Shown: piece after piece, positions 3,565 through 60,066 of the stretch
Layout of the letters: each line of letters starts with the position of its first letter
Position numbering within the stretch: the stretch's first letter is position 1
Origin: Oligoflexia bacterium
GTDB lineage: Bacteria; Bdellovibrionota; UBA1018; CAIPTA01
Length of the DNA stretch: 64,000 nt
NCBI GenBank assembly: GCA_903867855.1
Contig: CAIPTA010000181.1
Coordinates: 12,038 to 76,037 of the forward strand
Direction of reading: 5' to 3'
The notes under the pieces: generated by a model
Seen by the model: the letters and a program-made list of their open reading frames with translations, nothing else
What the model was told of the DNA's origin: nothing
Databases searched by the model: none
Made by a program: the position numbers and the translations under genes

Positions 3565-3669
3565 TTCTCCCCACTTTGCCCCAGAGTATAATTATAAACT
3601 AAGTTAAAGGGAATAACCAAGAGCGTGTCCTCGGGGAGACAGTCTGGCTGGAAACCGTGTAAAGTGGCG

Positions 3670-4587: not shown

Positions 4588-4676
4588 AATGACTGGAAAA
4601 CTTGGAATTAGTGCGCGATTATTAACGTCATCATTGATGGCGATGGTTTGCTTTTTAGTGAAGATAGGTTGAATCC

Positions 4677-9481: not shown

Positions 9482-10069
9482 ATGTATATCCCAAATCCAA
9501 TCGTAATCGAACAGACACCGAGGGGAGAGCGCCAGTACGATATTTACTCCCGCCTCATGCTCGATCGGATCATCTTTCTGGGCACAGAAGTGAATGATAC
9601 CGTGGCCAACCTTATCATGGCCCAGATGCTTTTCTTGGAAAGTAACGATCCAGATAAGGACATTAACTTTTATATCAATAGTCCCGGAGGCTCTGTGAGC
9701 GCGGGTCTTGGCATTTACGATGTGATGAAGTTCGTAAAGTGCGATGTTACCACCTATTGCATCGGCATGGCCGCTAGCATGGGAGCTTTCTTGCTTTCTG
9801 CGGGCACCAAGGGCAAGCGTTTTGCGCTACCTAATGCTCGTATCATGATTCACCAACCCTTGGGCGGAGCTCGCGGACAAGCCTCCGATATCGAGATTCA
9901 AGCCAAGGAAATTTTGTACTTGAAGAAGCGTCTCAATCAAATGCTCTCCGACCATACTGGACAGCCGATTGCGAAGGTGGAACAAGATACCGACCGCGAC
10001 AACTATATGAGCGCCGAAGAAGCGGTGAAGTATGGCCTAGTGGATAAAATGCTTACGCGTCACGAGTAA
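9482..10069 (+). CDS. clpP: ATP-dependent Clp protease proteolytic subunit
   Basis: [71 protein letters not shown] is the ClpP catalytic-triad context. An ATG at 9428 is an alternative start. The GTG at 9368 is rejected because it abuts the divergent Dus start. Confidence 0.9.
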
Positions 10070-10084
10070 ATTTTTGGGGGAACG

Positions 10085-11413
10085 ATGAATAAGACTCCGA
10101 CTGGAACCGGCAAAGGCGGCACACTTTATTGCTCTTTCTGTGGCAAAAGCCAACGGGAAGTGAAGAAGTTGATCGCAGGACCAAGCGTTTATATTTGTGA
10201 CGAGTGTATTGATCTCTGCAACGATATCATTACCGAAGACGTTACCAAAGAAGCCCCTGGGGTAGCTGGCGCCAAGAAAACTGGCGTGGAAAGCTTGCCG
10301 AAACCAGAGGAAATCAAGAAGCACCTCGATGAATACGTGATCGGCCAAGATCGCGCCAAGCGAGTGCTCTCGGTGGCGGTGTATAACCACTACAAACGCA
10401 TTAGTCAGCCTGGTGGAAAATCCCCTGGGGGTATCGAACTCGCAAAATCCAATATTTTGCTGGTAGGCCCCACTGGTTCGGGAAAAACCCTGCTCGCGCA
10501 AACGCTCGCGCGCATGCTGAATGTGCCGTTCACGATCGCCGATGCGACCACGCTTACTGAGGCGGGTTATGTGGGGGAAGACGTAGAAAATATCATCCTC
10601 TCGCTCTTGCAGAACTGCGATTTCGACGTGCAACGTGCTCAAAAGGGCATTGTGTATATCGACGAGGTGGATAAGATCACCCGCAAATCGGAAAACCCAT
10701 CCATTACCCGCGACGTATCTGGGGAAGGCGTGCAACAAGCGCTCCTCAAGATCATCGAAGGTACGGTTGCCAATGTGCCGCCCAAAGGGGGACGCAAACA
10801 CCCTCAGCAAGAGTTCATTCAGGTAGATACCTCGAATATTCTCTTCATCTGCGGTGGCGCTTTCGTGGGTCTCGAGAAAACAATTCAAAACCGTATGGGC
10901 AAACGTGCCATGGGTTTGAGCACGAATCACAAAGAGAAAAAATTGCTCACCGGCCAGGAACTCTTCTCTGGCTTGGAGCCTGAGGATTTGGTTCATTACG
11001 GCTTGATTCCAGAGTTCGTAGGACGCTTGCCCGTAGTGGCCGCTCTTGCGGAGCTCGATGAAGCCGCTCTCGTGGACATTCTCACGAAGCCAAAAAACGC
11101 GCTCATCAAGCAATACCAAGCGCTGCTACAGATGGACAATGTGGCTCTCGAGTTCGAGAATCCTGCGATCCATGCGGTAGCTCAAGAAGCTCTACGCCGC
11201 CGCACAGGGGCAAGGGGACTTCGCGCCGTGCTCGAACAGCATATGCTAGATGTGATGTATGAAATCCCTGGTAGCACGAATATCAAGGGTTGCCGCGTGA
11301 CAAAAGAAGTGATCACGAACAACCAAAAACCAGAGCTGATCTATGCAGATCCCACTCCGGTGAAGAAGCCAGGCGAAGAAACTAAGACGCCATCTGACCA
11401 AGAAATCGCATGA
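10085..11413 (+). CDS. clpX: ATP-dependent Clp protease ATP-binding subunit ClpX
   Basis: N-terminal C4 zinc ribbon (CSFCGK..CDEC), Walker A GPTGSGKT and the full AAA+ module are present. The gene lies directly downstream of clpP. Confidence 0.95.
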
Positions 11414-11472
11414 TCCTTGACAGGGCCGCGTCTTTCTCCTAGTCTGTGTTCATTCACTGAAGGAGAATTTCT

Positions 11473-11700
11473 ATGGCCCGCGTCACCGTTGAAGATTGTC
11501 TGAAGCATGTAGTTAACCGCTATGAACTGGTGCACCTTTGCACTCGTCGTGCTCGTCAATTGCACCGTGGCGCAGAGCGTCTAGTTCCTTGCAAAAACAA
11601 TGATGTGATCGCAGCCCTTCGTGAAATCGCTGCTGGCAAAGTGCATTTCTTGCCACCATCTGCTCCTGTAGTAGACGAAAGCTCCACGCTCACCCAGTGA
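11473..11700 (+). CDS. rpoZ: DNA-directed RNA polymerase subunit omega
   Basis: MARVTVEDCLKHVVNRYELVHLCTRRARQL is a typical RpoZ N-terminus. Confidence 0.85.
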   Translation: MARVTVEDCLKHVVNRYELVHLCTRRARQLHRGAERLVPCKNNDVIAALREIAAGKVHFLPPSAPVVDESSTLTQ

Positions 11701-12677
11701 TCGTTCGCGCTGTTCTCTTCGCTATTCTTTTCAGTTCTTCGCTAGCCCGCGCTGCGGATAGGACTACTTCTATTCCCTATCTAGGGCCCGGCACGGATGT
11801 GATGTCGAAGGAGGAGTACCAGCGCGTTTACAAAAACTATATTCAGCTCAGTGCTCTCCTTGGCTATCCTTTTTTAGAAGGCAACGGTCCTGCTTGCGAT
11901 CATGACCTTCGCTCGATCTTTCGTCAATCCGGCTTCTTTAGTTATCCTGTGCCTGCGGATGCGGAGGAAGTGAAGAAGAGCAAATTTAGTTCAGGTTCTT
12001 CATTGGTGGAAAGCTACGAGCTTGGTGGCATCAGCATCCAAGTGGTGCGCGATGGAAAAACGAAAGCCTTAGATCGACTAATTTTAGTGAATGCGATCAC
12101 GCCAAAGGCCAAGCGTAAGTTGAGTCAGCTCCTGCGCAAAGAAATTTTATCCCTAGACCGTGACACTCGCACCGGCCTTGAAAAGGTGGCGGGCCTGCCT
12201 GTGGGATTTCCCCATCCCTTGCTCACTCAGGAATCCCAAGGTCTTTATGTGAAAATATTAAAATTCAATGGCAAGTTGGATGGCTGCGCGCCCTTGGCCT
12301 ACCTCGATAATACTTGGGTGGGCGGCTTTAATATCACTGATGCTGGTTGCCATGAGTTGCAGGATGCGGTGGAACAGGTGTGGACTGGCCATTCGACGGC
12401 GAAAAATTTTGCTGCCAGCGAAGTGCAAAAGATGCGGGATCACGCCATGAAACAAGCGATGAGCCATGGTTTAAGTGAGGCTGAGGCAGCAAAAATTGTG
12501 GCGAAGAATATAGTGGAACCCTTCACGGCGGATGTAAACGTGATCGGCAATGCGATGAGAAATTTGGCGCAATGTAATTCTCTGGCCCTCGGCAGCGGGA
12601 AGAAATCTCCTGGCGGCTCTGAACAGGAATCTCCCAATAAAGCAAATTCTACTCCCACAGGGAGCTCAGCAAAATAG
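11697..12677 (+). CDS. secreted hypothetical protein
   Basis: GTG start overlaps the rpoZ stop codon. Signal peptide MIVRAVLFAILFSSSLARA. No recognised catalytic motif. Confidence 0.45.
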   Translation: MIVRAVLFAILFSSSLARAADRTTSIPYLGPGTDVMSKEEYQRVYKNYIQLSALLGYPFLEGNGPACDHDLRSIFRQSGFFSYPVPADAEEVKKSKFSSGSSLVESYELGGISIQVVRDGKTKALDRLILVNAITPKAKRKLSQLLRKEILSLDRDTRTGLEKVAGLPVGFPHPLLTQESQGLYVKILKFNGKLDGCAPLAYLDNTWVGGFNITDAGCHELQDAVEQVWTGHSTAKNFAASEVQKMRDHAMKQAMSHGLSEAEAAKIVAKNIVEPFTADVNVIGNAMRNLAQCNSLALGSGKKSPGGSEQESPNKANSTPTGSSAK

Positions 12678-12685
12678 GAGAGGGT

Positions 12686-13930
12686 ATGATGAAGCAGATT
12701 TTATGGTTCTCTTTGTTTTTTAGCCTAGCGGCCTCCGCGGCCCCTGATTGCTCTAAGAAAATGGGCGATCGACCCAATAAATCAGCGAAGCCGGGCACGG
12801 TGAATACCGCCATGCCGATCGAGCATATTGTGGTGCTCATGCAAGAGAACCATAGCTTTGATAATTATTTCGGGAAACTCAACCAACCGCAATTCTACGG
12901 ATCAGCGATTGACGGCGTTTTAGATACGATGTGGAATCCCGATCAAGACGATAACAAAGTATTTGCCCATCATGAGGAAACGCTCTGCGTTTCTAATCCT
13001 AAGCACGATTGGGAATCCATGCATAGCGATTGGGATAACGGCAAAAATGATCAGTTCGTGGTGAATAATAATAACCAAACAATCGGCTATTTCGATCAAA
13101 CGGACATTCCCTTTTACTATGCTCTCGCAAATCGCTTTGCGGTAGCAGATCGCTATTTTGCCTCCGCGATGACTCAAACCTATCCAAATCGATTTTATTT
13201 ACTCACCGGAACATCCTTTGGACACGTGGAGAATGATCCAGTTTATTTTGGCAAGTTTAGCCAGAAAACTATTTTTGAATTGCTCACAGAAAATGGCATT
13301 AGCTGGAAATACTATAATGATGGCTCCGGGTATTTTCAGTTGTTCAAGTACTCTGCTAGCACTGCGGATAAGATCGTGAACCCATCGCAATTTGTGCAGG
13401 ATTTAAATTCCGGCAAGCTTCCTCAGGTTTCCTTTATCGATGCGAGTGATAAAGGGGAAGATGAACATCCCTCCGCCGATATTCAGCAGGGCCAAGTATT
13501 CGTGGCGCAAAGAATTAAAGAGCTCACTCAGAGCCCCTATTGGGCTAATAGCGTGCTTTTTCTCGCCTATGATGAGAACGGTGGCTTTTTTGATCACGTG
13601 GCTCCACCGGCAGCCTGCGCGCCGGATAGCATTGGCCCAAATCGCTTTGGCTTGCCCACAGGTGGCGATTTTCAGCACTACGGATTCCGTGTGCCCTTTG
13701 TGGCTGTATCGCCCTTTGCAAAAACGCACTATGTTTCCCATAAGACCTATGATCACACCTCGATCCTTCGCTTCATTGAAACGAAATTTAATTTACCAGC
13801 GCTAACCTCAAGGGATGCGAATGCCGATGATCTTTCCGATCTCTTCGATTATTCACAATCGAACCTAAGCGTAGATCTTCCAAGCGGAGCTATGGATCCC
13901 GCGAAAGCGTGTAAAGACTCTATTTTCTGA
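12686..13930 (+). CDS. secreted phosphoesterase-family enzyme (phospholipase C / AcpA acid-phosphatase type)
   Basis: Signal peptide MMKQILWFSLFFSLAASA. Hallmark IEHIVVLMQENHSFDNYFG of the PF04185 phosphoesterases. An AGGAGAGGG RBS precedes the ATG. Confidence 0.75.
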   Translation: MMKQILWFSLFFSLAASAAPDCSKKMGDRPNKSAKPGTVNTAMPIEHIVVLMQENHSFDNYFGKLNQPQFYGSAIDGVLDTMWNPDQDDNKVFAHHEETLCVSNPKHDWESMHSDWDNGKNDQFVVNNNNQTIGYFDQTDIPFYYALANRFAVADRYFASAMTQTYPNRFYLLTGTSFGHVENDPVYFGKFSQKTIFELLTENGISWKYYNDGSGYFQLFKYSASTADKIVNPSQFVQDLNSGKLPQVSFIDASDKGEDEHPSADIQQGQVFVAQRIKELTQSPYWANSVLFLAYDENGGFFDHVAPPAACAPDSIGPNRFGLPTGGDFQHYGFRVPFVAVSPFAKTHYVSHKTYDHTSILRFIETKFNLPALTSRDANADDLSDLFDYSQSNLSVDLPSGAMDPAKACKDSIF

Positions 13931-13970
13931 TTCAATTTCATAGATTTCGGGAAATTGCCGATCTATTTAG

Positions 13971-16475
13971 GTGAGATTTTTCGCCTTTTATTTTGCTGCC
14001 TTTTTTCTAAGTCATTCCGTGGCGTTCGCCGTTGATCTAGGGCCATTATTTAAAAATTGCCAAGAGGCATGGTCTAAACTTAGCACTTCGCAATCTAAGG
14101 ATAGGCAAGCCTTGCTCGATAGGGTGAATCCGTCTACCGACACATTGGATCAACTGGATCGCTTAACTGCTGTAGAAGATATTTTAAAATGGGGCAAAAC
14201 CACGGATGACGAATTGGATTATCTGCGCCTCATTCGTCTCCGCGATTATGTAGATGCACCAAATTATATGGCCGGTGTGGAAATCTATGGCCAGGAAACC
14301 TATCTCGCTTGGCGTGATGCAGATGAATTTTTAAAGAGCATTCCGATTGGAAAATTTGAACCCACTATCGATGTGCTTTCAAAGAATCATCGCTTGGCCA
14401 CATCTGCCTTGTCGAAAACTCTGAAGCGTCTTGATAGTATCATCCCCGATGGTCTGCTGGCGGATAAGGGCGGAGTGATCAAGCGTAGAAGCTCGATCAA
14501 TATTGTGCCGATCTTGGACCCCTTGAAACATCCCTTCACAGATGAGCAGTATGCGGCCATCAAAGCAAACCAATGGCTTCAGGGATTTGTAGAGCTCCCC
14601 ATTCATCAGCCTGGTAAACATTTTGGATATATCTACTATTCGAAACCAGAGGATACACAGCCTGAGCTCGAGGCCTTAATTAAATGGTATGATCTCAATA
14701 AAAATAAAATGGATCCGGTGGAGCTCGCCGCAAAGTTTTCCTATCGTTATACTTCGATTCATCCTTTCATTGATGGGAATGGACGTTCTTCTCGGCTCAT
14801 CATGGATCGTATCCTCGCTGAATATGGATTACCTCCACCCTTATTAAAAGATTCGTGGGAAGATATTGTGCTCGGCGAAGATAAATATGTGCAAGAAGTG
14901 CGCGATGGGATTGATCGCTACTTAACCCTAGCAGAACAAAAAGCGCCAACTTATTATAATAATAAAAGTGGCAACTTAGTTACAACAGGGGTGTTAAAAC
15001 TGTCGGCCGCTAGCGATAGAGTGCTCGCACCACTCAGCGGAGAAACATTTAAGGTAGAAGGCAAAGAACTTTATTTCAGCACTACAGATGGATTTTTCTA
15101 TGATCATTTTGGTGTGCCGTATTTGGTGCACGAAAATCGATTTTATCCAGTGGCCGATCGTAGCTATCGTTTATATGAATTGAATGCTACGGCAAAAATA
15201 GATGGATATACTGCAGGGCTCAGCAAAGGCCATGCCCTACAGCTAAGAGAGAATTTGCGTTTTATCAAAAGCGTTGCGGATAAAAGCGCAGATTTAACGA
15301 CGTTCACGGTGGAGCCGTATTCTTCGATCGCAGCCGCGAATAAAATTGGAGATTTCCAGTTTTTCCCTTGGCAGAAAGATCTTTTTCAAAGCGCGGCCAC
15401 AATTACGGAAACAGATCCAACTAAAATTCTTTCCGTGTTTCGCTTTCAAAAAACCACTTTCGCTGCTGGCGCAAATCCAGAAACGATACTGGCTCAGTAT
15501 GAGTATGTAGATTACCTATATTGGCAAATGCAGCAAGCGGCCAAAAAATATTTTCCTGATCTTGAGGCTACCGTGATGGAGAGTCGTCAAAAGTTGCACC
15601 AAGCGGGAAGAGATTTGCTAGAGCCTTATCGTCAGGCCCGTAATGCACTTCCGTCTGAAGGTGCCCAGCGAGTAAGCAATAACTATCGAGTGAAGCTTTT
15701 CGATGCTTACTTGGAAAATTCTAAGCTCAGTTATAAGAGCTTCGATCGAGCCATGGACGCTATGCCAGACGATTCCATGGTGGTGATGCGTAGTGATATG
15801 CCGATCGTTTCCAAAATTGGCTTCACTTCTATTAGCGATTTTAGGAAGTTGTTCACCAGCCTGCCAAATTCCAAGAAGTTGGGGATTTTCCTCGAAAAAT
15901 TGCAAGCCTTCATGACGGGAGAAGGCAAGCGCCCCCTGCAGCAAGTTATTGCTGGAATTCACGAAAAAATTGAAAATAATGAAGGCCCTTTTAAGTTCTT
16001 GCCGCCATTTTTAGAGAAGATGTATTTTGATATTGAAAAAACCTATAACGATGGCGGTTACAACGCATTTCTAACTGCGCTAGCTAAAGTTCTAGAGAGT
16101 CCCTATGTTCATCGAGGTCTGGGCGACGAGTGGGAGCGTGCCTTCGTAGTGCAGCAATTACATGCTGGAGATGTGGGGAATAAATCTCTTAAATCTTTCA
16201 CAACGAACACAAATTTAATGAGTGGGGTGCCTTTTGTGGATATTCCTGCAAAGGGACAAATCTCCTTTGTGCGAATTCCAAAAACCAAGATCAAGCCTCA
16301 ACTGGGCTCTGATATGTTTACGAATGAATACGAAATATTGGCAACCGATATAGTTGGGCCGCAGAGAATTATTCAAAAGTTTTCTGGAGCGGAATTGGCG
16401 CAGCCAATTACTCCGGTAGAAGCTCTGCCGGATACAGATCCAAATAAACAATTTATGCAGCAGTATTTTAATTGA
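13971..16475 (+). CDS. large secreted Fic (Fido) domain protein
   Basis: Signal peptide ..FFAFYFAAFFLSHSVAFA. The canonical Fic active-site motif H-P-F-x-D-G-N-G-R-x-x-R (HPFIDGNGRSSR) is intact and embedded in an otherwise unrecognised 834-aa protein. No (S/T)xxxE(G/N) inhibitory motif was noticed by eye. Confidence 0.75.
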   Translation: MRFFAFYFAAFFLSHSVAFAVDLGPLFKNCQEAWSKLSTSQSKDRQALLDRVNPSTDTLDQLDRLTAVEDILKWGKTTDDELDYLRLIRLRDYVDAPNYMAGVEIYGQETYLAWRDADEFLKSIPIGKFEPTIDVLSKNHRLATSALSKTLKRLDSIIPDGLLADKGGVIKRRSSINIVPILDPLKHPFTDEQYAAIKANQWLQGFVELPIHQPGKHFGYIYYSKPEDTQPELEALIKWYDLNKNKMDPVELAAKFSYRYTSIHPFIDGNGRSSRLIMDRILAEYGLPPPLLKDSWEDIVLGEDKYVQEVRDGIDRYLTLAEQKAPTYYNNKSGNLVTTGVLKLSAASDRVLAPLSGETFKVEGKELYFSTTDGFFYDHFGVPYLVHENRFYPVADRSYRLYELNATAKIDGYTAGLSKGHALQLRENLRFIKSVADKSADLTTFTVEPYSSIAAANKIGDFQFFPWQKDLFQSAATITETDPTKILSVFRFQKTTFAAGANPETILAQYEYVDYLYWQMQQAAKKYFPDLEATVMESRQKLHQAGRDLLEPYRQARNALPSEGAQRVSNNYRVKLFDAYLENSKLSYKSFDRAMDAMPDDSMVVMRSDMPIVSKIGFTSISDFRKLFTSLPNSKKLGIFLEKLQAFMTGEGKRPLQQVIAGIHEKIENNEGPFKFLPPFLEKMYFDIEKTYNDGGYNAFLTALAKVLESPYVHRGLGDEWERAFVVQQLHAGDVGNKSLKSFTTNTNLMSGVPFVDIPAKGQISFVRIPKTKIKPQLGSDMFTNEYEILATDIVGPQRIIQKFSGAELAQPITPVEALPDTDPNKQFMQQYFN

Positions 16476-18156
16476 TTGCTGGAAGCAGTGTGCTTAAGGA
16501 ACCCAGATCGTTTCTAAGTTGAATACCGATTCCGGCACCGAGGCCAGCGCAGGAATTAGTAACACTTTTTTTAATCGCAAATGTATTTTTGCAGTATTGA
16601 TTTTTTACGTCCGGAGCGGAAGGTTCCGCATCGGAGCAGAAAATAGAATTAAATATGGATAGACCAGAAGTCACATCTCCCAAAGGGTTCACTATATCTA
16701 TTACTTGGCCGCCAGCCAGGGCAAGGCCACCCTCATAGATCCCAATTCCGCCAATCGCGGCCACTAACTGATGAGGCAATTCCGTATCACTTGTGGAAAT
16801 CACGCCTTTTCCAAAAAATAGACCCGAAACTAAGTCCGCACCAAAGTCGATAGGGGCATTAATGGTGGAATCGATGATCGTGCCCACATAGCCAATATCA
16901 GAAGCAAAATAAGCGGCACCACGAAAAATCGGAGTAAAGAAATTTTCCTGTGGAGCTGGTGGTGGCGGTGAAATTTTTTTCTGGGGCAAGGGGTGAATTG
17001 TGTCTACCACTATTTTCGCTACGGCCTTAGCCTGGCCTGGCTGGAATTTTTCTTCGAGCATTTGAAAACTGCCTTGGTATCGCATTAGTAGTGCTTCGAT
17101 AAAGAGTACGTCATCCTCTCCCAGCGCACGATAAGATTTCGCGGCTCTTTCCATGGCTCCGGGTATATCTGAATAATGGTCTGATTCGCGCAATTCGAGA
17201 ATAGTATTCCAGACTAATTGATCTGCTTTTTCTTGCCCGAGTTGGTCTCTTATTTTCCAAAGGAATGATGGCAAAAAACTTTCCCATTTCGTTTCTGTTG
17301 GCGTGGAATTTGTGACTTCAACTATTTTACTGAAATCCAGTTCGTAGCTTTCGCCCGCGAATTCCTTAAGGCCAAGAAAAGAATTTTTTTCATTTATCGA
17401 GCTAGCCAGGTAGCTGCCCAGATTCAAGGAGATTGGTTTTTTTTCTGGATCGGGGAGTAGTCCGGGAGAATCTACGGCTGCATAGAATGCTTCCAAGTAA
17501 ATTAGGTCGGGCAGCTTGGCTGCGTCCATCCCAAAGTTAAAGTGGGCGAGGGTTTTGGCTGGTTCGAGTATTCCTAGAGTTACCCAGTCGTGTTCATAAA
17601 CTGCCTGGCCTTCATTCTCTGCGGTATCATACCAGTTTATATCTTCTAATCCTTGCTTGCGGCTATGAAACCAAATTTCTTCATTCCAGGAGCCATTTCT
17701 AGGAATATAGCGAGCGCTATTAAATTCCGCTTTTTCGGAAAAATGTTTTTGGGCATCGAATGCTTTATTCAAATCAAGCCGAACCAAAATTTTTCGATCT
17801 AGTGCTGAGTCTGGGCGTATTTGCGTGGCTAGTTTCAAAAAATATTCATGGGCCTTGGTGAGGTGGTAGAGCACATTGTTCGCATCAAAGGAGCGTTTTT
17901 TTATTGCGTCTTCACTGTCGGCACTTACTAATTTGAAGAAAGAATTTTCTGCCGCGTTGGAGCTATTTATTTGGAGTGCGCTTTTACAGCTTTCTTCTTC
18001 CAGCGAAGTTATTTTATAGCCTTGGTCGCTATCGATTTTTTCACTTGTAATAATAGCGCATTTATCTACGCTAGCCTCGATGGCGTTTTGGAGCTTCGCT
18101 ACCGCAGGCTGCGTGCAGAATAAGCTAAGGATTAGATAGAGCCATGGGCGATGCAT
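16468..18156 (-). CDS. secreted hypothetical protein with Gly-rich C-terminal region
   Basis: Signal peptide MHRPWLYLILSLFCTQPAVA and 562 aa. Convergent with the Fic gene, with which it overlaps by 8 nt. No known motif. Confidence 0.45.
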   Translation of the reverse strand: MHRPWLYLILSLFCTQPAVAKLQNAIEASVDKCAIITSEKIDSDQGYKITSLEEESCKSALQINSSNAAENSFFKLVSADSEDAIKKRSFDANNVLYHLTKAHEYFLKLATQIRPDSALDRKILVRLDLNKAFDAQKHFSEKAEFNSARYIPRNGSWNEEIWFHSRKQGLEDINWYDTAENEGQAVYEHDWVTLGILEPAKTLAHFNFGMDAAKLPDLIYLEAFYAAVDSPGLLPDPEKKPISLNLGSYLASSINEKNSFLGLKEFAGESYELDFSKIVEVTNSTPTETKWESFLPSFLWKIRDQLGQEKADQLVWNTILELRESDHYSDIPGAMERAAKSYRALGEDDVLFIEALLMRYQGSFQMLEEKFQPGQAKAVAKIVVDTIHPLPQKKISPPPPAPQENFFTPIFRGAAYFASDIGYVGTIIDSTINAPIDFGADLVSGLFFGKGVISTSDTELPHQLVAAIGGIGIYEGGLALAGGQVIDIVNPLGDVTSGLSIFNSIFCSDAEPSAPDVKNQYCKNTFAIKKSVTNSCAGLGAGIGIQLRNDLGSLSTLLPAIN

Positions 18157-18276: not shown

Positions 18277-20598
18277 CTACTGTGCCTTTGTTGTTTTGGA
18301 TATGATCGGACTCGTTTGACTATTCCCCAGCGAATCCGTGGCTACTACTTGGAAGTAGTAGGTGCTGTTAGCACTCAATCCATTCACGGTTACTACTTGC
18401 GTGTCGCTCGCAGTGCTTACTTGCACTGTTTGGAGAGACAAGCTTGTAGGGCTCGTTCCAACGGAGACTACTGCGGTAGAAAGTGCTCCGGGTGTTCGCC
18501 AGATGAGAGTGGCTGAGGTGGCTGTTGTTGTGCCATCGAAGCCAAGTATGGTCCATCCAGGAGTGGGATTGGTTCCTGTGCCCGTGCCAGTTCCTGTGCT
18601 GGTTGAAGTTGCTGTGGCAGTTTGAGTTGCTGTAGCAGTTTGAGTTGCCGTAGCAGTTTGCGTGGCTGTGGCCGTCGCGGTATCAGTCGCGGTCACGGTT
18701 TGTGTTGCTGTGGCTGTATCAGTAGCGCTTGCTGTCTGAGTCGCTGTAGCAGTCGCAGTTTGCGTTGCAGTAGCTGTCTGTGTAGCAGTCGCGGTCGCGG
18801 TTTGTGTTGCTGTGGCTGTATCAGTAGCGCTTGCTGTTTGAGTCGCTGTAGCAGTTTGCGTTACTGTGGCTGTCTGAGTCGCAGAAGCAGTTTGGGTAGC
18901 AGTAGCCGTCTGCGTAGCAGTTGCCGTTTGCGTTGCCGTAGCTGTCTGTGTGGCAGTCGCAGTTTGAGTTACTGTAGCTGTCTGTGTGGCAGTCGCAGTA
19001 GCAGTTGAAGTTACTGTTGCTGGTAAAGTGTCCACGTCGATCACTAGGCTATTTTTTTGCGTGCCAACTTGGTCACTTGCCGTAACCATGAAATAGTATT
19101 TGGATCCAGAGGCAAGATTCGAAACTGTGAGAGTGTGATTGGTGGCAAAGCTGGTTTCGTCGATTTCATTTGGAAAATTCACACCATCGATTCCCCATTT
19201 CAACTTGCCTTTGGTGGCAGCTTCTGGAGTTTGCCATACTAAGCTCACGCTGTTGAGTGCACCTTGTCCGGAGAATCCAACGATGTTCCAAACAACAGGG
19301 GCATTTGGTTGGCAATAGGTGATTGCGATTTTACTTGCGGCGCTCCCGGCATTCGCCAAGTGAACTATATCCGTGAGCGCAGTATAAGAATAAGGCTCGG
19401 TGCTTTGATCCACTTTTGCAGAGATGGAATTTGGATCGATCCAATTAGCGGGCCAAGAAAGCTTAAAGTCGTGGTTGATATTTACGCTATCAGAAATAGA
19501 GCTACCGATCTGTGCGAGACCCTTTGTATAGTCATCTTCAAAATTAAATAGCACGCCGCCAGTTTTCTGCACCATTTCGAAATATCCGTAGCCAAGGGAG
19601 GGATAGATGCAAGCAGCCTTCATGCTATTGTGAATGGCAAGATCCGCTTTTGTTACGTGAACGATGGCGTGGGTGGTTACAGGCATATCGCCTTTTAGGG
19701 CTTTTACAGCGGCAAATGTGGTATCGGTATTAATGCCAGTTTTATCATAGTAGTTCTTTTTTACATTCGATTCATAGGCCACATCGCAGCGAACAGGCAT
19801 GCCGAGCGCGTGCATCTCTGCATCGCTTGGGAAATAGGAGCCGATCTCGTTTTCGTCGCTCATAAATAAAATAGATAGAGCTGCATCAGGACGAAAAAAA
19901 CCTTTCGCTTGGTTTTCTTTCGCGTTTTTTGTAACTGCATAATAGAGGCTATAGAAGAGGGCCTCGCCGCTACCGTCATAATCGACGATCTTCATGCCGG
20001 ATTGAAAAATTTGCTGTAGGTCTTTTGCAATTTGCTGTGAGTTAAGTTTTTTATTGCTCAAGACATACGGAATATCTTTGGATGGTGAGTAGAGCACGCC
20101 GCGATGTGCGGAGTTTGCTTGGCCGAGCAGCACAGCATAGTTGATGTCTGAATCAGAGGGAAGCTCGCGCACCATGCTCTCAATATTGCTGGCAATGCGC
20201 TGCCAATTGGTTTCCATGCTACCCGAAGTATCCATCACAAAAAGAATATCTAGCTTGCGCGTGCAAGTGGCCGCATTTTGCTCAAAGTGATCCGTATTAC
20301 ATGTTGTGGGTGGCGAAGTGGGCTGCGGAGGATTTACGATCACCACGGGAGGCGATGGGGGCACTACAACGGGGGTGGGTATGTGTTCGATGGCCTTACA
20401 TTCCGCCACGATATTGGGATATTTTTTGAGGAGCTCGGCGCTGATTTTTCCTTTTTCATAGGCATCTTCCAGGCGATCACAGATCTCCCGATTGGGGTGA
20501 ACGGCGCAAGCGGCAAGAAGGCCTGATATAAGGAAAAATCCAGTAAATTTAATAAGATACCGGATTATTGTAGTGCTATTTGAATTTGTGCTACCCAT
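18277..20598 (-). CDS. lipoprotein with von Willebrand factor A domain, (TATATQ)n linker and fibronectin-III-like domains
   Basis: Lipobox ..ISGLLAAC. VWA MIDAS motif LDILFVMDTSGSME. About 140 aa of T-A-T-A-T-Q hexapeptide repeats. Flanking beta-rich segments (..LTVSNLASGSKYYFMV..; ..TVNGLSANSTYYFQVVATD..) are typical of FN3. Confidence 0.7.
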   Translation of the reverse strand: MGSTNSNSTTIIRYLIKFTGFFLISGLLAACAVHPNREICDRLEDAYEKGKISAELLKKYPNIVAECKAIEHIPTPVVVPPSPPVVIVNPPQPTSPPTTCNTDHFEQNAATCTRKLDILFVMDTSGSMETNWQRIASNIESMVRELPSDSDINYAVLLGQANSAHRGVLYSPSKDIPYVLSNKKLNSQQIAKDLQQIFQSGMKIVDYDGSGEALFYSLYYAVTKNAKENQAKGFFRPDAALSILFMSDENEIGSYFPSDAEMHALGMPVRCDVAYESNVKKNYYDKTGINTDTTFAAVKALKGDMPVTTHAIVHVTKADLAIHNSMKAACIYPSLGYGYFEMVQKTGGVLFNFEDDYTKGLAQIGSSISDSVNINHDFKLSWPANWIDPNSISAKVDQSTEPYSYTALTDIVHLANAGSAASKIAITYCQPNAPVVWNIVGFSGQGALNSVSLVWQTPEAATKGKLKWGIDGVNFPNEIDETSFATNHTLTVSNLASGSKYYFMVTASDQVGTQKNSLVIDVDTLPATVTSTATATATQTATVTQTATATQTATATQTATATQTATATQTASATQTATVTQTATATQTASATDTATATQTATATATQTATATQTATATATQTASATDTATATQTVTATDTATATATQTATATQTATATQTATATSTSTGTGTGTGTNPTPGWTILGFDGTTTATSATLIWRTPGALSTAVVSVGTSPTSLSLQTVQVSTASDTQVVTVNGLSANSTYYFQVVATDSLGNSQTSPIISKTTKAQ
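18575..19022. repeat. tandem 18-bp coding repeat (about 23 units) encoding (TATATQ)n in the VWA lipoprotein
   Basis: Near-identical 18-nt units (gcagtttgagttgctgta-like) run across about 450 bp. The opposite-strand Cys/Ser-rich ORFs (18622..19008 etc.) are artefacts of this repeat. Confidence 0.8.
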
Positions 20599-30601: not shown

Positions 30602-33448
30602 TTAGTTGGCTTTTTTGAAGCCGTTTGTGAAGTCATTGGAGTTATTGATGCCTTTGTCGGAAGTGGCAGATTCGTCTTGCTTAGACATTGCATCGGGCAC
30701 CGCTCCTTTTGCGTCAGTTATTTTTTTATGCATTACCTCGCACGCACATTTCTTCGTAGTTGGAGGGGCTCCAAGATCACAGGTTGCATCGGCGTCGGTA
30801 TAGGCAGAGCTCGAAGTCGCCGCGGGGGTAGTCATTGCACAAGCTTGCATTAAATTGGAGTACGCATCAAGAATACTTCCATTGCCATTTGCGAGTTCGG
30901 GTGTGCGTTCTTTAAAGTTAAATGTACTTGGAACTTCTGCAACGCAACCAGCGTTAACTTGTGCTTGGCATGCTAATTTACCAGCAGCGCCTCCACTTTT
31001 TTTCTTACAACCGTCTAAGGATTCGACGGCAGCAGAATAGGCCTTTACGGTTGAGTCATTGCTATTTGCGTTCATTGCAGCTTGAGCAATGTTTTTTTGA
31101 GCAGCCTCATCTGAACAATCATCGGAATTACCAGAGCAGGCGCTATTCGCTTGGCTTCTGCAGTCGGCAAGATCCGATTTTACCTCATTTGCACTGTCGG
31201 AACTATCTGAGCCACTATCGCTGGGTTTGGATCCGTTTTCTTGTCCATTCCGCATCATCCCACTTAGTAGTGTTATGAATCGTTTTTCTGAATTAGGGCT
31301 GCATAAATTTGCATAAGGCGCTCTGCAGTTGTTGCTTCCCAAAACTTTATCTAAATCGTCATAGTCTGATTTGATTAGGCTGCAATATCCAGTCATCGCC
31401 ATAGCCTCATTTTTTTTGTCCAAAACTTTATTTTTCAAATCAGTAGTGGCCTTCGCGTTTGCAGTGACGGATTCTGGATCCATATCGCTAACGCCGAGGA
31501 GGCCCTTCGCATCTGGCATTGGATCAGAGGAGAAGAGATTATTTCTATCTTTATCTTTCGTGAGGCTCGCGGGGTCTGCCTTTTTCATCGTAATACCAGC
31601 AGTGGCAGGTACGCCGAGAGCCGCTAGAGAGGAGCTAAGGTCAGCCACGGCGGAAGTAACTTTTCCAGCAGCGATAGCGAAAGAAGCCGATGCGGCTCCG
31701 ATCACATTAGTAATCTGAGCATTTGTAGCTTTTGCAAAACTAACTAATTTTTGTTTGTAAGCGCTTGATTGGGAGACATCGTAATCCTCTCGCTGCTGCA
31801 TCAGGGTGATACAAGCTTCAAAGCCAACGCATGTTTGCTGATCGGGCACTGTGGTTGGGCTGCCATTTGTATCCAGGGTTAGGTGCTGAAGTGTAATCGT
31901 GGTTGGGCTTGGATTAGCGGTCCAGGTGCCGCCAGTGCTGAGCTGAGCATACGCAGTTGTGCCGTTGATTCCACTTTCTAACTGCGCTTTAAGTTCTCGT
32001 AAACAATCGAGGCCTGCAGTCGGATCTGTGGTGGCGCTGCAGTTCGCTGCAAACTGGGAAAGACCGGTACTATAGCTTTTCGAGAATCGCGTGAGGAATC
32101 GGTTCATTGCTTTCGTCACTGTATTTGTGGCTTGGGTCTCGATAGATAAAATTTTCTTTTTAGCTGAGTCTACTTGATAGTAGCCAGCATAGTACTTTGG
32201 TCCCTGTGAGTTCATGTCTTGATCAAAATTGTTCATGGCCCTTTTAAAACAAGTCTTCATCGAACTTTGGTAGAAGTTTTTTAGAGTATCAGGGCTCACG
32301 GAACTTCCATTCAAGGCAAGTGAATCAAAAGTTGAGCTTAAATTGGTGAGTGCTTGTGCAAGCTGATTATTTACATACTGTTTAAAAGCTTTAGGGTCCA
32401 AAGCATTTAAATTTCCTGCACTAATGGAGTTCTGCAGGATATCTTGCTGCTGCTGAATTAAGCTGCTGATGTTTGCCGAGTTGCCGTTATTGAGCTCACC
32501 CTGCACCTGATTGGCGCCAAACGATTGGTTGGTAGCAGAGGCCAAACACGCAAGGGGAGACATCAAGCTTGTGCCATTGGGGCCGTTAATTCTGCAGGGC
32601 ATATTGCTATCGCCCACAAAGCATCCATTGATAGCATCACTGAGAATGCCTTTCATCCAATCATTTGCGGTTTTATTGCTGCTTATTTTGAGGTTGTCCA
32701 CCTGCCCCGCGAGATCTCCCGCAAAGCCTTGGCCACCAATGCTTACATCGCTGGCCCCTTGCGCTCCAGAGGAGCTAGGACTGATTAGGGATTGAACTTG
32801 GTTGATCATCGCATCAACTGCTTGGAGTTGATTGTTGAGGCCATTATCTCCTTCAAGATCATCCTTTATCTTTTTCGCCATATCGTCATAGTTCGTTACG
32901 ATGGATTGCTGGCTATCGTAAGCACCGTTGGCGGCTTCAATATAGGCTTTTAGCTGATCCTTGAATTGACCAGTAGCGATGGCATCCATCGCGGTTTGCA
33001 TATTCTTAATACAAAGAAAGCGATCGTTAGCGGCAGAAAACTGATCGAGCCAGGTAAGAGCATCTCCCCAAACAGTGTTGTAGGTCGAACATGTAACCTT
33101 CTCGCCAAGAATCGCGTTGGGGGGAAGTGCTGCTCCGCTTGCTGACCGTTTTCCTTTTTTTGCATTCGTTTCACACTGCGCTTCCGTAGCCATCGCCTGA
33201 GCAATAGCTGCGTTAGCTTGGCCAAGTTGAGTCCCTACGGTTCCCATTTTCGCGGTGGCGCCTACGAAGCTCGCCATATTCTGCGCTTGGTTTACGCCGT
33301 TAATTACCGTGGTGAGGCCGAGAGCTGCGCCACTAATTGCGCCAGCAGCTCCGGAGGCGGCATCAGTGCTTGCATCTCCCAACGCTGTGGAGCTGGCGAT
33401 CGATAGCAAAAGTATAGAGCAGGTGATGAGTTTTAAATCGGTGCGCAT
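30602..33448 (-). CDS. giant secreted Cys-containing A/S/N/Q-rich protein of unknown function
   Basis: Start at the ATG at 33448, with a GGAGG RBS. Signal peptide MRTDLKLITCSILLLSIASSTALG. About 950 aa with low-complexity composition and numerous paired Cys. Confidence 0.5.
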   Translation of the reverse strand: MRTDLKLITCSILLLSIASSTALGDASTDAASGAAGAISGAALGLTTVINGVNQAQNMASFVGATAKMGTVGTQLGQANAAIAQAMATEAQCETNAKKGKRSASGAALPPNAILGEKVTCSTYNTVWGDALTWLDQFSAANDRFLCIKNMQTAMDAIATGQFKDQLKAYIEAANGAYDSQQSIVTNYDDMAKKIKDDLEGDNGLNNQLQAVDAMINQVQSLISPSSSGAQGASDVSIGGQGFAGDLAGQVDNLKISSNKTANDWMKGILSDAINGCFVGDSNMPCRINGPNGTSLMSPLACLASATNQSFGANQVQGELNNGNSANISSLIQQQQDILQNSISAGNLNALDPKAFKQYVNNQLAQALTNLSSTFDSLALNGSSVSPDTLKNFYQSSMKTCFKRAMNNFDQDMNSQGPKYYAGYYQVDSAKKKILSIETQATNTVTKAMNRFLTRFSKSYSTGLSQFAANCSATTDPTAGLDCLRELKAQLESGINGTTAYAQLSTGGTWTANPSPTTITLQHLTLDTNGSPTTVPDQQTCVGFEACITLMQQREDYDVSQSSAYKQKLVSFAKATNAQITNVIGAASASFAIAAGKVTSAVADLSSSLAALGVPATAGITMKKADPASLTKDKDRNNLFSSDPMPDAKGLLGVSDMDPESVTANAKATTDLKNKVLDKKNEAMAMTGYCSLIKSDYDDLDKVLGSNNCRAPYANLCSPNSEKRFITLLSGMMRNGQENGSKPSDSGSDSSDSANEVKSDLADCRSQANSACSGNSDDCSDEAAQKNIAQAAMNANSNDSTVKAYSAAVESLDGCKKKSGGAAGKLACQAQVNAGCVAEVPSTFNFKERTPELANGNGSILDAYSNLMQACAMTTPAATSSSAYTDADATCDLGAPPTTKKCACEVMHKKITDAKGAVPDAMSKQDESATSDKGINNSNDFTNGFKKAN

Positions 33449-33563
33449 AGAGCCTCCAAAGCGAATCCCCATCTAACTGATCGGACTTTTCTAGAAAAGT
33501 CTTTACCGTAGGAAAATACTTTGGATATTGTTTAAGGATTTTACAGTGTCTAAAAGTTCGACA

Positions 33564-35870
33564 CTATTGGAAGCTTAAGAGCTTAGAGAAGATGATCGCG
33601 ATTTGGCCACGGTCCGCTTTATAGTTCCACTGTTCAAAGGTGAGGTAGCGCCACCAAACATAACGCGCCTCTTCGCCCAGGCTTTCAGTGGGCACATGCT
33701 GGAAGCGAAGCAAATAGGTGAAGAGGGCAAACCAATCTTCATTCGATTTCAATCCGTGTGGCGTGGCCTTTTCGCCGAGGAAACGAGCGAAAGTTGGATA
33801 GGCAGTTTGGCCTTCGGATTGATCGATATAACCATCTTTATTTACATCGTATTTCGAGAAAAGAATTTCGATATAATACGGAATCAAGATATAGGCTTCC
33901 GTGTCGGATAGCTGATAAGGCGCGCTTGCGCTACCTTTTCTCACCAAAGCATCAAAGGCTTCCATAATGGATCCTTGTTGGGCGGCTGGCTGGCCTTTGA
34001 AGTAGTTCGCGAAGGCGGGAATATAATTCCAATACTCAGGCGCATTTTTCTTAAAGGCATTGCGGTAGCAAGTGGCATCGATCAAGGCATTTCCCTTTGC
34101 ATCCACGCCGGTGGAGCCACAGATGGCCTCAATCGAGGAATGCACAATTGGAGCTTGCTTCACTACAGAGAGCAATAAGTACTCAAGTTCGAGCGCATCG
34201 TTGATACTGAGAATATTATTGCCCACGCCAGCGTAGGTGAACATATCTGCTTCTAGCATATAGGTTGTGGCGGAATCTTTAGAACTCTCCGAGAGAATAT
34301 TGGCGCTCTCTAGAATAGGGAAGAAATCTGCCCACAAGGAGTTCACTTCATTCTTGGTGAGGGCAGGGTCACTGAGCGGCTGGGGAGTGCCGTAGCCACG
34401 CATCATGAGCGCCGAGATACTTCGGAAAATATTGAGATAGCTGAGGTTGGTAAAGCCAATGTCCTCCGCGGGCTTGCCATCAGGAATGGTTACCCAGGCC
34501 GTATTGAGCGGCATTACCGTGCGCACGTTCGCGATTCGCTTTTGCATATCGCGGATGGCGGCGAGAGAATTTTGATCGCCGAAGGATGTCCACTGCAGGG
34601 CTTTATCGGGCGTGACTGCGAGAATATCACTTCGCTTCATAGTGATTGAGTTGATGTTTTGACCATTCGCTACACTAGTATAGAGACCGCTCAAATAGAG
34701 CTGCGCTTCCGACCAATTGGTGAAATCCGCATACATTTGATCGATGCTACCAGGATTAATTCCGGTATTTTTCTCTGCAAGCGGGGCAGCCTTATAGAAA
34801 ACTTTATCAAAGAGCACGCGAAGCACTGGCTTTAGAGAATCTGCAGAGATCGGCACGAGCTGATTCGCAGAGAGTGTATCGATCATCGTATCCAATTCAT
34901 CGTAGCTGATGAAACCGGCTGGGTGGTTGGCGATAGAAAGTTGGAGAAGTGTTTTAGCGTCGGCGGCGATTTGTTCAAAACGCTGCAAGCCTTTTCCCTT
35001 CACTAGCGAATCATGCTGCTTTTGGTAGTAGGCGGTGCGCACTGCGAGGGTGAAATAGCGAGGCACTAAATAGAATACTTGCTGCCAATCGCTCTTTTGG
35101 ATCACATCGGCGGGTGGAGCTACGAGAATGGATTTTCCGTAACGAACAATCTTGAGGTAGCGCAATGCATCTACAGCCCAAGCCCCGCCATTATCTGCCG
35201 GGTTCGGACCATAAAAGAGAAAGCCCATTTGGGTGATCAAGGCATCGAGATGATCGAAGCTATAGGTACCAATACTTCCCTGCAGGGCCTCACCAATTTT
35301 GGCGGTGGCATCATTGAGCGCTTGGAAGGCATTTTCAAAGCTATCGGGGTCGAGTCCGCGCTTGGAAATCATATCGAAGCCGAATGGTAAATAGGGGCGC
35401 ATCACCTTCGACTGCTGCCGGAATACTTCCATGATACGAAGTGTATTGCGAAGTTCGTCGGCGGTGATTTGGTCTACGCGTCCGCCGAGCACGCCTTGCT
35501 TAAAGGCCATCGCTTCCGCAATAAACTCAGGAGTGAGTGTGCGGTTCTTCATGAAAAATTTCTGAATGAAGGCGCGAAGTTCTTCTGGAGTATAGTAATC
35601 CGGGTTAGCCCCTTTGGTGCTTTCCACAAAAGTTCGGAAGGCTTTACTTAAGCAGAGCCAGAAGGAATCTAGTTCGTCTTCACTAATAGTGCCCTGGAAG
35701 AATTTTTTGAAAGGAGTGCCAGGATCGGAAAGGCAACCTCCAGACAGCGCATTCACGGATAGGGATTGCGGATCTTGTTGAGGATCATTGAGCTTGAGCG
35801 AGCAGGCGGTGAGCAAGCTGCTGGCAATGGCGATTGCTGCGATTGGGCGAAGGATTTTACTAAAAGACAT
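33564..35870 (-). CDS. large lipoprotein with EF-hand-like Ca-binding loop
   Basis: Lipobox ..SSLLTAC. C-terminal DVNKDGYIDQSE fits the EF-hand loop pattern D-x-N-x-D-G-x-I-x-x-x-E. 768 aa, otherwise unrecognised. Confidence 0.5.
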   Translation of the reverse strand: MSFSKILRPIAAIAIASSLLTACSLKLNDPQQDPQSLSVNALSGGCLSDPGTPFKKFFQGTISEDELDSFWLCLSKAFRTFVESTKGANPDYYTPEELRAFIQKFFMKNRTLTPEFIAEAMAFKQGVLGGRVDQITADELRNTLRIMEVFRQQSKVMRPYLPFGFDMISKRGLDPDSFENAFQALNDATAKIGEALQGSIGTYSFDHLDALITQMGFLFYGPNPADNGGAWAVDALRYLKIVRYGKSILVAPPADVIQKSDWQQVFYLVPRYFTLAVRTAYYQKQHDSLVKGKGLQRFEQIAADAKTLLQLSIANHPAGFISYDELDTMIDTLSANQLVPISADSLKPVLRVLFDKVFYKAAPLAEKNTGINPGSIDQMYADFTNWSEAQLYLSGLYTSVANGQNINSITMKRSDILAVTPDKALQWTSFGDQNSLAAIRDMQKRIANVRTVMPLNTAWVTIPDGKPAEDIGFTNLSYLNIFRSISALMMRGYGTPQPLSDPALTKNEVNSLWADFFPILESANILSESSKDSATTYMLEADMFTYAGVGNNILSINDALELEYLLLSVVKQAPIVHSSIEAICGSTGVDAKGNALIDATCYRNAFKKNAPEYWNYIPAFANYFKGQPAAQQGSIMEAFDALVRKGSASAPYQLSDTEAYILIPYYIEILFSKYDVNKDGYIDQSEGQTAYPTFARFLGEKATPHGLKSNEDWFALFTYLLRFQHVPTESLGEEARYVWWRYLTFEQWNYKADRGQIAIIFSKLLSFQ

Positions 35871-37254
35871 AGTATAATCCTCCTCGTGCGCGGCTATTGT
35901 GCTGAAACTTACTTACGATATCCACATTGTCTGCGGCAGTGGAGCCGAGCATATCGAGCCCCGCATTTAGCATCCAGCGACTCGAGAAATTATAGAAAAA
36001 ATCGCTCACAAAAATATTTTCTTTATGAATGGGGATATAAATGAATTTTACAGAGGCCTTAAAGATTCCTGCCCAAGATTCTAAGATGGGGCCTAAGAGT
36101 GCAATGCTATAGGCGTCGCTGAACATATAGCGAGGCTCAAAGATACCTGTGGGGCTAGAGGTGGCGAAGGAGCCGCTATCTGGGGCGTTACCGCCTTCCA
36201 CATGAATATAGGAAATCTCCGCTTGGGTGGAGGCTAGTCCACGACCATGGAGATTTTGCTGTAAAAGGCCGCTTGCCACAGTGGCATTTTTCGTGGTTTG
36301 GATATTCCAGTTTGAAGCTGGGGTATCCGCCTTGGTATTCTCTTGGATAACAGAGCCTGTGATTTTTGTGTTGGCGCCAGCGATTCCTACATCTGCCGCG
36401 TAGATCTGGTGGTAAAGCACGCGAGTATATACATCGATAGGCAAGGTGAGAGTGCTCAAATTGAGCTGACCTATATAGTTAAGCAAGATCTGGTTCATGG
36501 GCTTATAGGCAAAGGAAGCTCTGCTCCACAAGCCGTGCTCGGGATTACCCACTCGATAGCTAATGCCAGTGCCTGGGTTGTCGAGCACATCACGAATGCC
36601 TGGAAAGTGCAGCGTAAGATTAAGAGTAGTAGCTTGGTTGAAAAGGAGCACCGTGGACGAAGGACAGCTAAACCAAGGCGAGTTTGTTTTACAAACGCCG
36701 CCACTGATATCTTTTGATGTGCCTAGCTCCGGGATAAAAAGTGGGGTGGCGAAAACGGTGAGCTCGGAAGAATTGTCAGGGGCCTTGTAGTGTAGGAAGA
36801 AACCTGCCAGGCCATCTTGTTGCTCTTGTAGGTAATCCCAGCGGAAGCGAGGCTGAAAGAGACCTAGCGACCAATAGCTATCTACGGTGCTCCAATCCTC
36901 GCGCTTGCGGCCGAAGACGAGCTGCCAGGAGGAAGGCTTGGTGGCGATATAGGCTTCATGCACATCGTAGGAATGGTAGCCGCCGGAATGAAGGCCTAGC
37001 ATGGCTTCGCCATTAAACTCTGCTTCCAGCTTATCGGTGGCACGATACGCATCATAGCCAACAGAGGCCGCGAAATAGCCCACTCGCTGGGCGGGGAGCG
37101 CATCTGCGCTTTGCGTGAAATAGTGCACATCGGAGAGTCCGAAGCGGAAAGTATTTTTATCGACGTCGGAAAAGTTGGTGGGCACAGCGTGCGCAGTGGA
37201 AATAGAAAAGAAAAGCCATAAGCATAGGCTTCCCATTTTCTTAAGTTTCCGCAT
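35860..37254 (-). CDS. outer-membrane beta-barrel protein (unknown family)
   Basis: Signal peptide MRKLKKMGSLCLWLFFSISTAHA. Alternating amphipathic beta-strand texture. C-terminal ..GGLYYVF with terminal Phe is typical of OM beta-barrels. The 3' end overlaps the lipoprotein gene start by 11 nt. Confidence 0.5.
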   Translation of the reverse strand: MRKLKKMGSLCLWLFFSISTAHAVPTNFSDVDKNTFRFGLSDVHYFTQSADALPAQRVGYFAASVGYDAYRATDKLEAEFNGEAMLGLHSGGYHSYDVHEAYIATKPSSWQLVFGRKREDWSTVDSYWSLGLFQPRFRWDYLQEQQDGLAGFFLHYKAPDNSSELTVFATPLFIPELGTSKDISGGVCKTNSPWFSCPSSTVLLFNQATTLNLTLHFPGIRDVLDNPGTGISYRVGNPEHGLWSRASFAYKPMNQILLNYIGQLNLSTLTLPIDVYTRVLYHQIYAADVGIAGANTKITGSVIQENTKADTPASNWNIQTTKNATVASGLLQQNLHGRGLASTQAEISYIHVEGGNAPDSGSFATSSPTGIFEPRYMFSDAYSIALLGPILESWAGIFKASVKFIYIPIHKENIFVSDFFYNFSSRWMLNAGLDMLGSTAADNVDIVSKFQHNSRARGGLYYVF

Positions 37255-37442
37255 TGGCAACAACAGCATTTTGCTCCACTGATAAGGCAATTTTTTCTAG
37301 CCTTTAGTATAGCAATCTGCTTCCTATAAAACAACGCAAGAAAGCCGCAGAAACGCTCAGCTATTGGTTTAGGGGTACTTGTTAAAAGGTATTTATTTAT
37401 AGCCAAAAACACTACGTGTTTAGGTTTTTGACAGCTGAAAAA

Positions 37443-59866: not shown

Positions 59867-60066
59867 GTGTATTTGTCCCTCGCTAAAATTTGTATCCCGC
59901 CAATAATTTAGGTGCAACAAAGGAGAGGCAATTTTTTGAGAAAACTATGAAATAAATACGCGATATGACGTTTTGCGTTATATCGTTTTATGTAAACATA
60001 TATTAGTTATAATTGACGGTTCATCCTTTTCTGGCAAGGATCTTTGCAGAAAGAGGGAATAAATTC

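Follow-up and report, generated by a model that had tools for sequence, protein, structure and literature searches.

The gene at 13971..16475 on the forward strand of the window, that is, the whole 64,000-nucleotide stretch of DNA analysed here (contig CAIPTA010000181.1 of assembly GCA_903867855.1), encodes an 834-residue protein in which a Fic domain, a conserved middle domain and an ADP-ribosyltransferase (ART) domain follow one another, and which is called the Fic-ART protein below. The reading that we favour, with moderate confidence, is that of a two-headed modifying toxin, Fic plus ADP-ribosyltransferase, which is exported through the general secretory (Sec) pathway and acts after delivery into another cell. 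It starts from the open reading frame (ORF) itself, the Fic fold with its motif, the ART fold with its invariant triad, the fixed architecture of the family, and the finding that all members whose source is named belong to Bdellovibrionota. A role as a prey-directed effector is plausible.

The individual effectors by which Bdellovibrio-like predators rapidly disable their prey are poorly understood, and the rare family described here offers a concrete and testable candidate. AMPylation and ADP-ribosylation are carried out by the kinds of enzyme with which pathogens switch off host proteins, and here both activities are predicted for one probably exported protein. The cassette formed by the three domains is conserved and diversified in Bdellovibrionota, and it is re-used inside giant multi-toxin proteins.

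The Fic domain

The Fic domain covers residues ~121-325 (14331..14945, +) and is nearest to the class II Fic proteins. The Pfam Fic model PF02661 matches residues 221-282 with an E-value of 1.9e-14; the score of 54.7 bits exceeds the cutoff of 24, and the match is far beyond chance. Its catalytic motif, HPFIDGNGRSSR, lies at residues 264-275 (14760..14795, +) and is the sole Fic-type motif across the six frames of the window; the preliminary description of this DNA, made from its letters, had reported an intact HxFx(D/E)GNGRxxR motif, and the motif is indeed complete. By sequence, the nearest solved relatives of the domain are BT_2513 (PDB entry 3CUC) and FICD, and structural comparison likewise points to FICD and BT_2513.

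An alignment of 53 full-length family sequences, the source of all the conservation counts given below (x/53), was used to build an AlphaFold2 model of the whole protein. The model is confident, with a mean predicted local distance difference test score of 87.9 and a predicted template modelling score (pTM) of 0.86, and it is weak only at residues 19-23, 327-342 and 410-413. Structure prediction had been proposed in the preliminary description as a way of locating the Fic core, and the Fic fold is found in the model: the beta-hairpin "flap" (residues 205-222; 14583..14636, +; assigned by DSSP) lies ahead of the motif helices, and the flap and the helices round the motif come in the expected order. 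Judged by its motif, the domain would be expected to take AMP (adenosine monophosphate), or a phospho-group related to it, from a nucleotide and to place it on a hydroxyl of the target.

Ahead of the flap there is a conserved, confidently modelled and mostly non-helical segment of 38 residues (153-190; 14427..14540), which is beta-bridged to the flap and in which P159, G161, G168, K171 and R173 are the conserved positions. This segment may be an elaboration, peculiar to the family, of the region that binds the target.

The middle domain and the ADP-ribosyltransferase domain

The ~700 residues outside the Fic core, which the preliminary description had found unrecognisable, contain a second catalytic fold: the C-terminal ~210 residues form an ADP-ribosyltransferase fold. 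The two closest homologs align over the full length at 38-40% identity; in this alignment the remaining ~540 residues are conserved as well, and (V/L)MRSD, KSFTTN and EYE(I/F)L are invariant in this comparison.

The middle domain (residues 346-600; 15006..15770, +) consists of a small beta unit and a helical bundle, and its conserved motifs are DGF-Y, YP-DR, PWQK, AQY and ESR-K-H. Nothing specific was matched by it in sequence and structure comparisons; scaffolding, target binding and translocation are all possibilities for its role.

The ART domain (residues ~601-810; 15771..16400, +) belongs to the R-S-E clade. Only five columns are invariant in the family alignment, whose sequences reach down to 16-20% identity, and three of these are R607, S742 and E788. 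Arg607 (15789..15791, +; 53/53) stands in strand beta1 in the sequence VVMRSD. The STS-type motif is S742-F-T744-T745 (16194..16205, +), a strand followed by a helix, with S742 in 53/53 and T or S at position 744 in 52/53; the S-T-T form of this motif occurs in 14 members, and it takes the form S-F-T-T in the Fic-ART protein. The (E/Q)-x-E motif is E786-Y-E788 (16326..16334, +) at the start of a strand, with E788 in 53/53 and position 786 occupied by E in 32 and by Q in 19 sequences. In the AlphaFold2 model, R607 lies in strand 602-609, S742 opens strand 741-744, with helix 747-750 coming after it, and E788 opens strand 788-791 after a loop; as modelled, the three residues occupy the positions canonical for an ART.

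A poorly conserved helical insertion of ~100 residues (613-715; 15807..16115, +) separates the Arg strand from the STS strand. Just before the S-x-T-T strand, a helix (16137..16163, +) carries Arg723 (50/53) and His731 (47/53), and the latter may be the counterpart of the His found at the catalytic site in cholera and pertussis toxins. The ARTs fall into two major clades, one of which is defined by the R-[ST]-E triad together with (E/Q)-x-E, and ExE is the arginine-modifying signature (PMC11606950). On these sequence grounds, the domain would be expected to transfer ADP-ribose from nicotinamide adenine dinucleotide (NAD+) to a target, most likely to arginine.

No Pfam or NCBIfam ART model matches the Fic-ART protein or 38 family C-termini at E<=10, and no ART of the PDB was found by profile search with the C-terminal region. 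The domain thus escapes the sequence models of all three collections, and it constitutes a sequence family, as yet undescribed, of a fold that is itself known; an ART sequence family missed by current profile libraries is added in this way. The sequence matches that were returned for the C-terminal 500 and 250 residues (Pfam, NCBIfam and PDB; single-sequence and profile searches) were rejected as coiled-coil noise on the helical insertion.

Family, architecture and distribution

An exhaustive profile search with residues 331-834 gave 86 cluster representatives among 1.84 billion proteins, while a word-indexed homolog search had given only 3-4 proteins, even from an 8-sequence profile. Nearly all full-length representatives have 800-1,000 residues, with the module starting at ~320-450, and a Pfam Fic match lies immediately upstream of the module in 13 of the 14 representatives scanned. 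The order Fic-middle-ART is constant in every full-length member, giant proteins included. As for the two catalytic centres, the R-S-(E/Q)xE signature of the ART is the most conserved catalytic signature of the family (53/53), whereas the full Fic motif is kept in just 27 of the 53 representatives, its losses falling mainly on D268 and R275; the catalytic His is present in 47.

The giant relatives come from metagenome-assembled genomes (MAGs) of Bdellovibrionota. Among them, P0005 and its relatives, including P0096 (4,028-4,416 residues), combine the Fic-middle-ART cassette with a ParB-like nuclease and transglutaminase-like domains, and P0006 (2,265 residues) combines it with a glutamine deamidase domain, so that these proteins resemble multi-effector toxins.

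In a scan of one genome per species, true relatives were found only in MAGs of Bdellovibrionota, Bacteriovoracaceae, Bdellovibrio and Pseudobdellovibrio. The source of the window falls within the same phylum: its ClpX is closest to that of Bacteriovoracia and Bdellovibrionota MAGs, at 74-82%, with no identity above ~82% to anything else, and the other named neighbours are Oligoflexia and Bdellovibrionales MAGs. This placement is in keeping with the earlier interpretation. The organism is accordingly an uncultured member of Bdellovibrionota, for which a predatory lifestyle is assumed from the phylum.

Two loci of relatives deserve mention in their own right. In a Bdellovibrio sp. MAG (L006, ~9900-12342), a frameshift separates the N-terminal region of the homolog from its Fic core; the Fic motif has the form HPFIDGNGRTSM, in which the last Arg is lost, and the N-terminus bears a lipobox. 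Either this copy is decaying, or the split is an error of the MAG assembly. At locus L001, the P0003 homolog adjoins a second, smaller Fic gene of 358 residues and a gene for a 683-residue domainless protein (1366-2442, -, and 2557-4608, +), and a Y2 transposase fragment lies near it.

Probable export and the N-terminal region

A Sec signal peptide is predicted for residues 1-20 (MRFFAFYFAAFFLSHSVAFA; 13971..14030, +), with cleavage after AFA and before VD. The basic n-region MR, the hydrophobic core FFAFYFAAFFLSHSV and the AxA-type site of the c-region AFA give the n/h/c layout of the Sec type, and no twin-arginine motif is present in the signal peptide. By a crude hydrophobicity heuristic, 41 of the 53 family members have a signal-peptide-like N-terminus, with lipoboxes in several, and all the homolog N-termini that were inspected are signal-like. 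The Sec signal named in the preliminary description is therefore borne out in its layout, and the Fic-ART protein is probably Sec-exported.

The mature N-terminus would continue into a helical extension (residues 21-120; 14031..14330, +; delimited from the AlphaFold2 model and conservation), which contains Cys30 and a conserved H-x-x-E-h-Y-G segment. Cys30 (14058..14060) is the sole cysteine of the protein, stands ten residues past the predicted cleavage site and is nearly invariant in the family; an intermolecular disulfide and anchoring chemistry are both possibilities for it.

The question of auto-inhibition

Class II Fic proteins inhibit themselves by an N-terminal helix with the motif (S/T)xxxE(G/N), and the enzyme is freed when the Glu is replaced by Gly (PMC3667792). 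In the Fic-ART protein, no match to this motif was found upstream of H264, where the class II spacing would place it about 125-134 residues before the His. The single literal match in the whole protein is TFKVEG at residues 359-364 (15045..15062, +), downstream of the Fic motif and in a beta-strand of the middle domain; considered as a class III-style C-terminal inhibitory motif, it was rejected as unconserved and judged a chance regular-expression match. Across the 53 members, such matches are spread at random over 22 alignment positions. Since the motif is conserved nowhere in the family, its matches scatter, and the Glu of TFKVEG is Gly in the closest homologs, the canonical inhibitory device is absent. 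The earlier statement that the protein has no (S/T)xxxE(G/N) had thus overlooked a literal match and was right in that no conserved canonical motif exists.

The further statement that there is no inhibitory helix holds for the canonical motif and is too strong beyond it, given a fold nearest to class II and a conserved acidic residue at E104. When the protein is aligned to FICD by hhalign, in global and local modes alike, H229-TVAI-E234-G235 of FICD (a sequence consistent with the PDB alignment) stands opposite H140-RLAT-S145-A146, and the helix at residues 133-146 (14367..14408, +) is aligned to the FICD inhibitory helix, with Ser145 at the position of Glu234. On this register, the protein would be a candidate for an inhibitory helix that is retained with its Glu lost; the registers obtained with FICD and with the class II proteins P0090 and P0091 are three different ones. 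The pattern H-x4-E-(G/N) at the S145 site is kept in 8 of the 53 relatives (hypergeometric p 0.004). The segment H-x-x-E104-h-Y-G is much better conserved, with an acidic residue at 104 in 41/53, Y or F at 106 in 45/53 and G at 107 in 44/53, so that AGVEIYG (residues 101-107; 14271..14291, +) contains in E104 a candidate non-canonical inhibitory or structural Glu.

Proposed mode of action and alternative explanations

In the two-headed toxin that we favour, the signal peptide would be cleaved after Ala20 to leave a mature protein of residues 21-834. Its Fic centre, which appears to lack the canonical brake, would place AMP or a related phospho-group on a target hydroxyl, and the middle domain would join this centre to an ExE-type ART of the cholera/pertussis/TreX-like clade, which would place ADP-ribose from NAD+ on the target, most likely on arginine. 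The periplasm is without ATP and NAD+. Because both chemistries need these cytoplasmic co-substrates, the protein would have to reach the interior of another cell, for which the prey is the most plausible candidate, or else work in a compartment of the prey that the attack has rendered leaky, and this would presuppose a route out of the periplasm.

It may be asked whether both centres are at work. That the ART is the sole effector seems to us rather unlikely; on this view, the Fic domain would be under auto-inhibition, or it would be a pseudo-enzyme with the task of regulating the ART or of binding nucleotide or target as a scaffold. Against it stand the intact state of every catalytic Fic residue in the window protein, the wide retention of the catalytic His, and the Fic core itself, whose average conservation of 2.21 bits per position is the highest of any region in the family. 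Moreover, neither E104 nor a Glu at position 145 co-varies with the second Arg of the motif (R275) in the 53-sequence alignment, and for E104 this null result also counts against the ART as sole effector.

That the two domains act one after the other on a single substrate we regard as improbable. By analogy with the logic of SidE, the ART might, for example, attach ADP-ribose, and the Fic site would then process or transfer the AMP-containing moiety. The constant Fic-middle-ART order, kept even inside the giant proteins, would fit such coupling, and so would the pTM of the model, which for an 834-residue multidomain protein suggests rigid packing. The state of the Fic motif also co-varies with the ART variant: the motif is complete in 23/32 ExE members and in 2/19 QxE members (Fisher p 2.8e-5, uncorrected for phylogeny), the protein of the window belonging to the subfamily with two intact centres. 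In sequence terms, this co-variation hints at a functional linkage of the two chemistries, but it may merely mark two subfamilies. Members with a dead Fic centre retain the ART triad, which indicates that the ART is not strictly dependent on Fic catalysis, and no Fic enzyme is known to act on ADP-ribose. An obligate catalytic pair, bringing about a two-step or combinatorial modification of one prey target by an undescribed chemistry, is likewise improbable in our estimation; if it were true, Bdellovibrio-like predators would possess in it a device for killing or hijacking that is specific to their lineage.

There is also little to recommend the view that the C-terminal domain is an NAD+ glycohydrolase (NADase) or a modifier of DNA or RNA instead of protein: the window protein carries ExE, the arginine-type signature (PMC11606950), and the best ART matches are the protein-modifying toxins TreX, ArtA and pertussis toxin S1, ART structural matches being obtained again with the full-length model (TreX 9.1, CARDS 8.0).

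The Fic-only reading of the preliminary description, under which the rest of the protein would serve delivery or target binding without catalysis of its own, is very hard to reconcile with the family: none of its 53 aligned sequences, which reach down to ~16-20% identity, has lost the R, the S or the E, and E and Q alternate two positions before the Glu, a pattern unexpected for a non-catalytic module; the ART triad also outlasts the full Fic motif. Finally, a self-directed periplasmic regulator, which would modify envelope or chaperone proteins of its own cell reversibly as FICD does, is in keeping with the kinship of the Fic domain to FICD and BT_2513 and with the lack of an immunity gene in the neighbour comparison, yet it would have to work in a compartment without ATP and NAD+, and the fusion of a toxin-clade ART to Fic and the presence of deamidase and nuclease toxin domains beside the cassette in the giant proteins make it most improbable.

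Gene, annotation and neighbourhood

The gene has a GTG start straight after an in-frame TAG, and its stop codon is at 16473-16475. The 834-residue ORF named in the preliminary description coincides exactly with the ORF found here, and public gene callers give the identical 834-residue product (P0004). One public record (P0001) has a call of 557 residues that begins at Met278, by which the signal peptide and the whole Fic motif are lost; other public records have the full 834 residues. Proteins of this family are labelled only "Fic family protein" or "hypothetical" in public records.

Upstream, 40 nucleotides before the Fic-ART gene, lies a gene for an exported PF04185 phosphoesterase of the phospholipase C/acid phosphatase family (12686..13930, +; E 1.2e-90), which may be co-transcribed with it, and just before this gene there is a 326-residue exported protein with no domains (11697..12677). 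Promoter and terminator scans of the region gave nothing above chance level, with 10 terminator-like matches around the Fic-ART gene against 7.9 expected. A small hairpin followed by a T-run at 13969..13986 (+) overlaps the GTG start and the preceding AGGTGA, and it may mean nothing.

Downstream, a gene for a 562-residue exported-like protein with a signal-like N-terminus (16468..18156, -) is convergent with the Fic-ART gene, the 3' ends overlapping by 8 nucleotides, and this protein has no Pfam, NCBIfam or PADLOC match. The 683-residue gene upstream of P0003 was considered as its counterpart and proved unrelated. No window neighbour recurs beside the homologs in the loci L001-L007, that is, neither a conserved neighbour nor an immunity gene appears there. 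PADLOC gave no full-length defence match, only matches of ~70 residues to the generic Fic core of SoFic, PDC-S04 and PDC-S24.

Further along, 18277..20598 (-) encodes a lipoprotein-like protein of 773 residues, in which a long low-complexity repeat, (T-A-T-Q)n, occurs together with two fibronectin type III domains, and its N-terminal part has a relative near the Fic-ART homolog in L004 (9258-10217). The large ORFs at 30602..33472 (956 residues), 35860..37290 (476 residues) and 57434..59920 (828 residues), all on the reverse strand, are without Pfam domains, and 33564..35870 has only a weak EF-hand match.

Comparison with known systems

The fold nearest to the Fic domain of the Fic-ART protein is that of the class II Fic proteins FICD/HYPE and BT_2513 (3CUC). 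In comparison with these, the Fic-ART protein has no canonical (S/T)xxxE(G/N), carries Ser145 at the FICD Glu234 position by hhalign and lacks the tetratricopeptide repeat domain, whereas it has the ordered 38-residue loop (153-190) before the flap and the middle and ART domains fused downstream.

The fold relatives of the ART domain are the R-S-E ART toxins, namely TreX (an Rhs toxin of the type VI secretion system), pertussis toxin S1, ArtA/PltA, CARDS, heat-labile enterotoxin and Scabin, at 11-20% identity. The Fic-ART protein differs from them in its ~100-residue helical insertion, in S-F-T-T in place of S-T-S and in the fusion to Fic; neither B subunits nor an Rhs cage accompany it, and an immunity gene is likewise missing.

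Among the multidomain secreted Fic toxins, IbpA combines Fic with a cysteine protease and AnkX combines it with ankyrin repeats, while the partner of Fic in the Fic-ART protein is an ART. The delivery signal also differs, being a plain Sec signal peptide and not a type IV secretion signal or two-partner secretion.

SidE of Legionella is a single secreted protein with a mono-ADP-ribosyltransferase and a phosphodiesterase, whose coupling has been demonstrated. The likeness consists in a secreted protein that holds an ART and a second nucleotide-handling catalytic domain (SidE is reviewed in PMC8605245). The second domain is a phosphodiesterase in SidE and Fic in the Fic-ART protein, for which coupling is speculative.

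The literature searches turned up neither an account of a Fic protein from Bdellovibrio nor one of a Fic-ART fusion, and to our knowledge the protein described here is the first such fusion. Both folds are well known, and the novelty lies in the fixed Fic-middle-ART cassette, in an ART family invisible to existing profiles, and in the confinement of the members with a named source to Bdellovibrionota.

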